A DNA stretch of 64,000 nt, from NCBI RefSeq assembly GCF_022846255.1, contig NZ_AP025682.1; one strand, given 5' to 3'. The notes below the pieces were generated by a model. The model saw only the letters and a program-made list of their open reading frames with translations, had not been told where the DNA came from and did no database searches. Both the position numbers and the translations under genes were made by a program. Numbering within the stretch: the stretch's first letter is position 1; every line of letters begins with the position of its first letter. Positions 5,667-6,018 of the stretch are shown here, piece by piece. The DNA is from Escherichia coli (GTDB lineage: Bacteria; Pseudomonadota; Gammaproteobacteria; Enterobacterales; Enterobacteriaceae).

Positions 5667-6018
5667 GTGGATAGTAATAATCAAATTGAACCCTGTTTAA
5701 GTAGAAAATCGTCAGAAGGTAAACCACAAATATTTACAACCTTACGAAATATTGATCTTACTCTTCTGACTATTTTGAAGTTGCATATGTCCATAAAGGA
5801 ATCGTTAATGCAGCGAAAGTGCTTAATCTGCCCCCCTCGGTCGGAGCCCTGGTCCTTCCTGTCATCTATCGGGCGATTAAAACTCACTATCCACAGCTTT
5901 TACTGCGCAACCCGCCCATCGGCGGCGCGGAAAACCAACTCAGTCAGTTTCAAACCGATCTCATCACCGATAACATGTTTTGCACAGGACCATAGATGTT
6001 ATCCGTAATGCATTTTGA
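5667..6018 (+). pseudogene. ybeF: Degraded LysR-family regulator gene (ybeF remnant): N-terminal HTH codons, frameshift, internal loss, terminal codons in a third frame
   Basis: GTG start with GGAG upstream gives a LysR-like N-terminus (LRNIDLTLLTI); the HTH continues only after a -1 shift near 5771-5777 (EVAYVHKGIVNAAKVLNL); the shifted frame then jumps into effector-domain-like sequence and stops at 5993; lipB-lipA spacing is 819 bp, too short for a full ~950 bp LysR gene. Confidence 0.6.

Follow-up and report, generated by a model that had tools for sequence, protein, structure and literature searches.

The short interval between lipB and lipA in this strain of Escherichia coli raises the question of whether it still harbours a working copy of ybeF, the gene for a LysR-family factor of unknown function that lies between these two genes in E. 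coli, Salmonella, Klebsiella and Enterobacter, as described by Feng and co-workers (PMC4398509). The window considered here, a stretch of 64,000 nucleotides of contig NZ_AP025682.1 (assembly GCF_022846255.1), shows the gene order dacA, ybeD, lipB, a spacer of 819 bp (5408–6226), lipA and tatE, and the YbeF-like segment within the spacer occupies the same-strand position between lipB and lipA that is typical of the YbeF orthologous group. In K-12 MG1655 the corresponding spacer measures 1420 bp and contains an intact ybeF of 954 bp (b0629, NP_415162.4), in agreement with the spacings of 819 bp and about 1.4 kb given in the initial annotation, which had proposed that the segment is a decayed LysR gene remnant inactivated in this strain. 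The coordinates given there all proved correct. The evidence reviewed below upholds the inactivation, and we place the probability that window positions 5667–6018 represent a non-functional, stepwise-decayed ybeF pseudogene at about 95%. The implied strain-specificity does not stand, since the allele is fixed and is the same in UTI89, Nissle 1917 and E2348/69.

Homology of the window spacer to that of K-12 is far above chance, as judged by three collinear blastn blocks that identify the remnant as ybeF. These pair window spacer positions 1–433 with K-12 spacer positions 1–433 (96.5% identity, E-value 0), 427–578 with 631–782 (96.7%, 4e-71), and 585–819 with 1186–1420 (99.6%, 6e-124). Pairwise and multiple alignments account for the net loss of 601 bp relative to K-12 by changes of -1, -204 and -397 bp within the gene and a gain of one T in an upstream poly-T tract. 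Thus the internal loss, first estimated at roughly 600 bp, is real in size, but consists of two separate microhomology-flanked deletions of 204 and 397 bp. Aligning the window to the K-12 region yielded no continuous full-length open reading frame, and the K-12 reference gene, at 954 bp, is not as short as the remnant.

Reading of the remnant frame by frame follows the same lesions (Table 1). The LysR-like start noticed at 5667 is the GTG start of K-12 ybeF, and the first 36 codons lie in frame 1, up to the site of the -1 shift that had been suspected near 5771–5777; the run itself holds four T residues, as opposed to five in K-12. Beyond it the helix-turn-helix (HTH) carries on in frame 3 (FEVAYVHKGIVNAAKVLNL), where HTH residue ~56 is directly joined to effector-domain residue ~125 (PSVGALVLPVIYRAIK...) before the TAG is reached, so that the abrupt passage from HTH to effector sequence noted earlier is explained by the first deletion junction. 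Frame 2 then supplies the final native codons, HRTIDVIRNAF, and the stop at 6016–6018, as had also been recognised. Altogether some 118 of the 317 ybeF codons are retained in the window, scattered over three frames. In K-12 the segment missing in the 204-bp deletion has CCCTCGG at each end, and that missing in the 397-bp deletion has TGCAC at each end. Just 3' of the 397-bp junction there are substitutions, K-12 reading GGAGTA, ST131 GGGGTC and the window AGGACC. A gap-affine pairwise alignment rendered this region as 403 bp replaced by a 6-bp filler (AGGACC), a reading rejected once the multiple alignment with ST131 resolved it into a clean 397-bp deletion plus substitutions.

Table 1. Features of the lipB–ybeF–lipA region, in window coordinates.
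Feature	Position	Strand	Basis or remark
lipB (lipoyl(octanoyl) transferase), intact upstream neighbour	4766–5407	+	213-aa ORF; 0 non-synonymous differences vs K-12 and UTI89
ybeF promoter TTTACA-15-TATATT, retained	5466–5492	+	exact match to the K-12 promoter of PMC3946193; also found by consensus scan
Upstream patch with K-12/IAI39-type bases in the window	5537–5596	.	variable-column table
Non-coding poly-T, T7 vs T6 in K-12 (+1)	5622–5628	+	pairwise alignment
ybeF remnant, whole	5667–6018	+	three lesions: T loss, 204-bp and 397-bp deletions
ybeF codons 1–36, native frame, GTG start	5667–5774	+	translation vs K-12 YbeF
T-run minus one T (T4 vs T5), -1 frameshift at codon 36/37	5773–5776	+	alignments
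ybeF codons 37–56, first two helices of the HTH, -1 frame	5774–5833	+	translation; HTH_1 = K-12 residues 31–89
204-bp in-frame deletion junction, codons ~57–124 gone	5831–5840	+	inside CCCCCCTCGG repeat; alignments
Effector-domain fragment, codons ~127–175 (VGALVLPVIYRAIK...DNMFCT)	5841–5985	+	LysR_substrate = K-12 residues 116–316
397-bp deletion junction, TGCAC direct repeat, codons ~175–306 gone	5981–5985	+	MAFFT alignment
Last 11 native codons and original stop, third frame	5983–6018	+	translation (frame 2)
Premature TAG closing the -1 frame	5993–5995	+	ORF list, translation
lipA promoter ATGGCA-17-TACATT, retained	6060–6088	+	exact match to the K-12 promoter of PMC3946193
lipA (lipoyl synthase), intact downstream neighbour	6227–7192	+	321-aa ORF; dN = 0 vs K-12

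The consequences for the encoded protein are extensive. K-12 YbeF matches both LysR domains in Pfam, HTH_1 (PF00126) at residues 31–89 (E = 1.5e-14) and LysR_substrate (PF03466) at residues 116–316 (E = 1.4e-16), and is encoded by an uninterrupted 317-codon gene. The window locus is clearly orthologous, with the same GTG start, retained blocks 96.5–99.6% identical, and identical promoters and 3' end, but of HTH_1 only residues 31–56 are left, split by the frameshift, and of LysR_substrate only residues ~125–175 and 307–317. What has disappeared is the recognition helix along with wing and linker helix, the first effector-domain strand, and approximately two thirds of the remaining effector domain. 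In place of an uninterrupted frame of some 300 codons there are three frames interrupted by the TAG, and no ORF that begins at the native start exceeds 113 residues. Neither this literal 113-aa ORF nor the frame-repaired remnant (117 aa) gave a Pfam match at E ≤ 0.1. The NCBIfam YbeF equivalog model NF008554 scores K-12 YbeF at 609.8 bits over positions 1–317 of 317, and the frame-repaired remnant at 156.2 bits in two stretches, under the curated cut-off of 277 bits. The remnant is thus clearly homologous to YbeF but, judged by its domain content, is not a functional member of the YbeF orthologous group; syntenic homology to an intact gene combined with disabling lesions marks it as a unitary pseudogene.

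A trivial explanation for such a finding would be that the organism has an intact gene after all, the T-run indel and the gaps having been introduced by sequencing or assembly. Homopolymers are indeed error-prone, and the length of the C-run at 5831–5836 does vary among genomes, but correcting the T-run cannot rescue ybeF because 601 bp are missing. Moreover, the four-T run and both junctions are present in the independently finished genomes of UTI89, Nissle 1917 and E2348/69, the same T4 is found in ST131, and about 1050 genomes share the second junction. An assembly error in the T-run is excluded by these comparisons, and the chance that the lesions as a whole are artefactual is negligible.

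Comparison with other E. coli genomes placed the window allele in a series. A 1031-bp query around the spacer returned a single ungapped match of 98.7% identity in UTI89, S88, APEC O1, IHE3034 and the type strain ATCC 11775. UTI89, Nissle 1917 and E2348/69 carry both deletions and the T-run frameshift; over the 352-bp coding remnant the window is identical to UTI89 (352/352) and differs from Nissle at one position and from E2348/69 at seven, and the spacers of these three strains measure 819, 819 and 820 bp, respectively. The ST131 allele (H7R27_RS16680, which PGAP annotates as a frameshifted, incomplete YbeF-family pseudogene) resembles that of the window in its T-run frameshift and 397-bp TGCAC deletion, but differs in that the 204-bp segment is still there and the spacer measures 1024 bp. 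This intermediate allele is 100% identical in EC958, JJ1886, SE15 and other O25b:H4-ST131 genomes, and 562 genomes match it at 99% identity or better. Its 204-bp segment has diverged from that of K-12, with 595 genomes at 90–95% identity to the K-12 segment vs 97–100% for sampled intact alleles. We take all of the named short-allele carriers to belong to phylogroup B2. IAI39, which retains an intact ybeF, is presumably of phylogroup F, and K-12 of phylogroup A.

The distribution of these alleles was estimated over 5426 complete E. coli genomes. A 403-bp K-12 stretch across the 397-bp deletion was found in 4373 of them and the window junction-2 sequence (at least 80% covered) in 1050, two counts that are nearly exactly complementary, and the 204-bp K-12 segment was found in 5034. 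The genomes accordingly divide into approximately 4373 of full-length type (81%), 661 of intermediate type (12%) and 389 of window type (7%), the last count being taken from absence of the 204-bp segment, as a short query across junction 1 would join half-matches in full-length and ST131 alleles. Additional, independent damage to ybeF appears among H108 (NZ_CP145689.1), H42 (NZ_OZ547461.1) and H107 (NZ_CP139130.1), a set that includes one ST131-type genome with an IS1 within the remnant and two full-length-type genomes in which a 65% partial match falls in two places each, annotated as LysR fragments.

These allele states show an order of events. Intact ybeF is the ancestral state, because the gene sits between lipB and lipA across E. 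coli, Salmonella, Klebsiella and Enterobacter (PMC4398509), and IAI39 likewise has it intact. In a first step, an ancestor shared with ST131 lost one T from the homopolymer, shifting the frame at codon 36/37, and also most of the effector domain, which went with the 397 bp deleted between two TGCAC repeats; these two lesions are placed first because they are common to every short allele examined. In a second step, a sub-lineage that includes the window strain, UTI89, Nissle 1917 and E2348/69 shed another 204/205 bp between a pair of CCCCCTCGG repeats, and with them everything from the recognition helix through the wing and linker helix to the beginning of the effector domain. This deletion is considered the later one because it is restricted to a subset of the short alleles. 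The repeat that flanks it spans 9 bp (CCCCCTCGG at both ends) in the ST131-type precursor, vs 7 bp in K-12. Both deletions were probably produced by slippage during replication, or by illegitimate recombination, between short direct repeats. Spacer lengths of 1420, 1024 and 819 bp provide a record of this order of decay that is easily typed by PCR.

The C-run at junction 1 comprises five residues in K-12, six in the window and UTI89, and seven in ST131 and Nissle, and the extra C in the latter two restores the native frame 20 codons past the T-run shift. Because of these differences in C-run length the ORF from the native start varies among alleles, encoding 113 residues in the window, 109 in Nissle and 177 in ST131, with tails that all differ; on this comparison no conserved replacement ORF is present among the three. 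The variation bears upon the notion that the remnant encodes a truncated or chimeric product with a new role, such as the 113-aa ORF at 5667–6008 or a mini-protein consisting of the YbeF N-terminus. Retention of the promoter, the Shine-Dalgarno-like GGAG and the GTG start would be expected of such a product, the 352-bp identity between the window and UTI89 remnants is in line with it, and the ORF is listed publicly as a hypothetical protein. Yet the frameshift comes after just 36 native residues, the HTH is incomplete, no Pfam domain is matched, and length and tail shift with each change in the C-run. Nei-Gojobori dN/dS estimates lead in the same direction. Intact alleles (K-12, strain 110 and strain 405) give values of 0.09–0.17, the comparison of K-12 with the window and ST131 remnants 0.29 and 0.51, respectively, and the comparison of the two remnants with each other 1.08, a ratio near 1 that is calculated from just two synonymous and seven non-synonymous changes. 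The rise in these values is what relaxed constraint after inactivation would produce, though the counts are small. No observation made here contradicts pseudogene status. A functional descendant product is therefore very improbable, and non-functional decay of ybeF is the reading retained in what follows.

Loss of the coding sequence does not entail loss of its expression signals. Constitutive RpoD promoters of ybeF and lipA were reported for K-12 by Shimada et al. (PMC3946193), and both are retained in the window, as is the GGAG ahead of the GTG. A scan of 5350–6300 detected no terminator-like site or hairpin, and an Rfam scan of 4300–7700 at E ≤ 1 placed no family in the lipB–lipA spacer. 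With the ybeF promoter kept and no terminator found, transcription of the remnant probably continues, and its translation could give a 113-aa chimeric peptide. The remnant presumably persists as a neutral spacer. Only one position in the 208 bp from the ybeF stop to lipA differs from K-12, and since the lipA promoter lies within this conserved region, the expression signals of lipA appear intact and the lipoate synthesis genes should be unaffected. As the 5350–6300 scan returned no terminator, it offers nothing to indicate that lipA is shielded from lipB transcription by the remnant.

Work on K-12 indicates the likely regulatory consequence. In BW25113, deletion of ybeF changed the expression of 67 genes, reducing lrhA 3.5-fold and raising the FlhDC iModulon/regulon, and ChIP-exo of YbeF found three sites, with none detected at lrhA (PMC9068703). 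A paralogue in E. coli is CitR (YbdO), which belongs to the same sub-group of LysR-type regulators at 30% identity to YbeF (PMC9068703) and ranks second among the NCBIfam matches of K-12 YbeF. It is encoded at a separate locus, and lrhA drops upon deletion of either gene. The window allele would yield no YbeF protein, so that the targets controlled by YbeF in K-12 are expected to be without YbeF control in this strain. More broadly, the lineage to which ST131, ST95, ST73 and the EPEC strain E2348/69 belong has lost a poorly characterised LysR regulator that K-12, like about 81% of complete E. coli genomes, keeps intact, and K-12 data on the YbeF regulatory network therefore do not transfer there.

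Motility is relevant to urinary-tract colonisation, and it is conceivable that positive selection favoured the loss of ybeF, as an adaptive change in regulation, in the ancestor of phylogroup B2, a lineage rich in ExPEC, as opposed to neutral decay of a dispensable gene. Such an origin would fit the fixation of the loss throughout a large and ecologically distinct lineage, followed by more erosion, as well as the effect of the K-12 deletion on lrhA and the FlhDC regulon. A clonal lineage, however, can fix a loss without selection, the effect upon lrhA in K-12 is indirect, given that no binding was detected there (PMC9068703), and independent disruptions look rare in full-length-type genomes, among which split matches are only sporadic. 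A literature search also found no paper tying ybeF to B2 or to virulence. Selection for the loss thus appears unlikely, and the same low likelihood attaches to the more specific proposal of an adaptive rewiring at the base of B2, for example of LrhA/FlhDC-dependent motility or citrate-linked metabolism. Were that proposal correct, the stepwise erosion, from the ST131-type to the UTI89/window-type allele, would be its aftermath, and the allele states, three in number, would also offer a simple means of telling B2 sub-lineages apart.

Whatever drove its loss, the ybeF remnant is already known as an annotated pseudogene. PGAP/RefSeq lists it as 'frameshifted; incomplete' in UTI89 (UTI89_RS29350), Nissle 1917 (HW372_RS16910) and E2348/69 (E2348C_RS28725), under a YbeF-family label in UTI89 and E2348/69 and a LysR-family label in Nissle, and a pseudogene flag stands at ybeF in every short-allele genome examined. 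The exact 113-aa ORF has also been deposited as a 'conserved hypothetical protein' from APEC O1 and other strains, and our literature search found no paper reporting the loss of ybeF. Fixed in roughly 7% of complete E. coli genomes and already flagged in RefSeq, the remnant is real but ordinary, a lineage-fixed lesion that on its own matters little, as it adds a single pseudogene to those of a species already well sequenced. What value it has is modest and lies in comparison.

The surroundings of the remnant carry signs of a mixed history. Within the 60 bp of 5537–5596, about nine clustered SNPs common to UTI89, Nissle, E2348/69 and ST131 are absent from the window. Because this pattern conflicts with that of the 204-bp deletion, which the window shares with UTI89 but not with ST131, it points to a short patch of recombination or gene conversion in the lipB–ybeF intergenic region. 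Downstream, lipA shows eight synonymous differences from UTI89 (dS 0.036), as many as from K-12. A divergent lipA adjoining a ybeF remnant identical to that of UTI89 suggests that the sequence around the locus is of mosaic ancestry. Within the first 20 kb of the window (1–20000), none of the complete E. coli genomes searched exceeded 99.2% identity, the best matches including A3, A26, H22 and NC101.

Two further observations concern the region beyond lipA. The only Rfam matches within 4300–7700 are sub-threshold and fall on the lipA/tatE terminator hairpin near 7220–7255; they involve STnc50, leader peptides and rsmX, and cover a GC-rich hairpin with T-tracts (7185–7258) between the convergent lipA and tatE, which is most simply read as a bidirectional intrinsic terminator and not as an sRNA. 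On the minus strand, 7625–8419 holds an intact 264-aa C-N hydrolase ORF, whose counterpart is annotated as 'deaminated glutathione amidase' in UTI89, IAI39 and E2348/69 and is the ybeM pseudogene (b4581) in K-12. The two genes have met opposite fates, K-12 having kept ybeF and lost ybeM, while the window strain has kept ybeM and lost ybeF.
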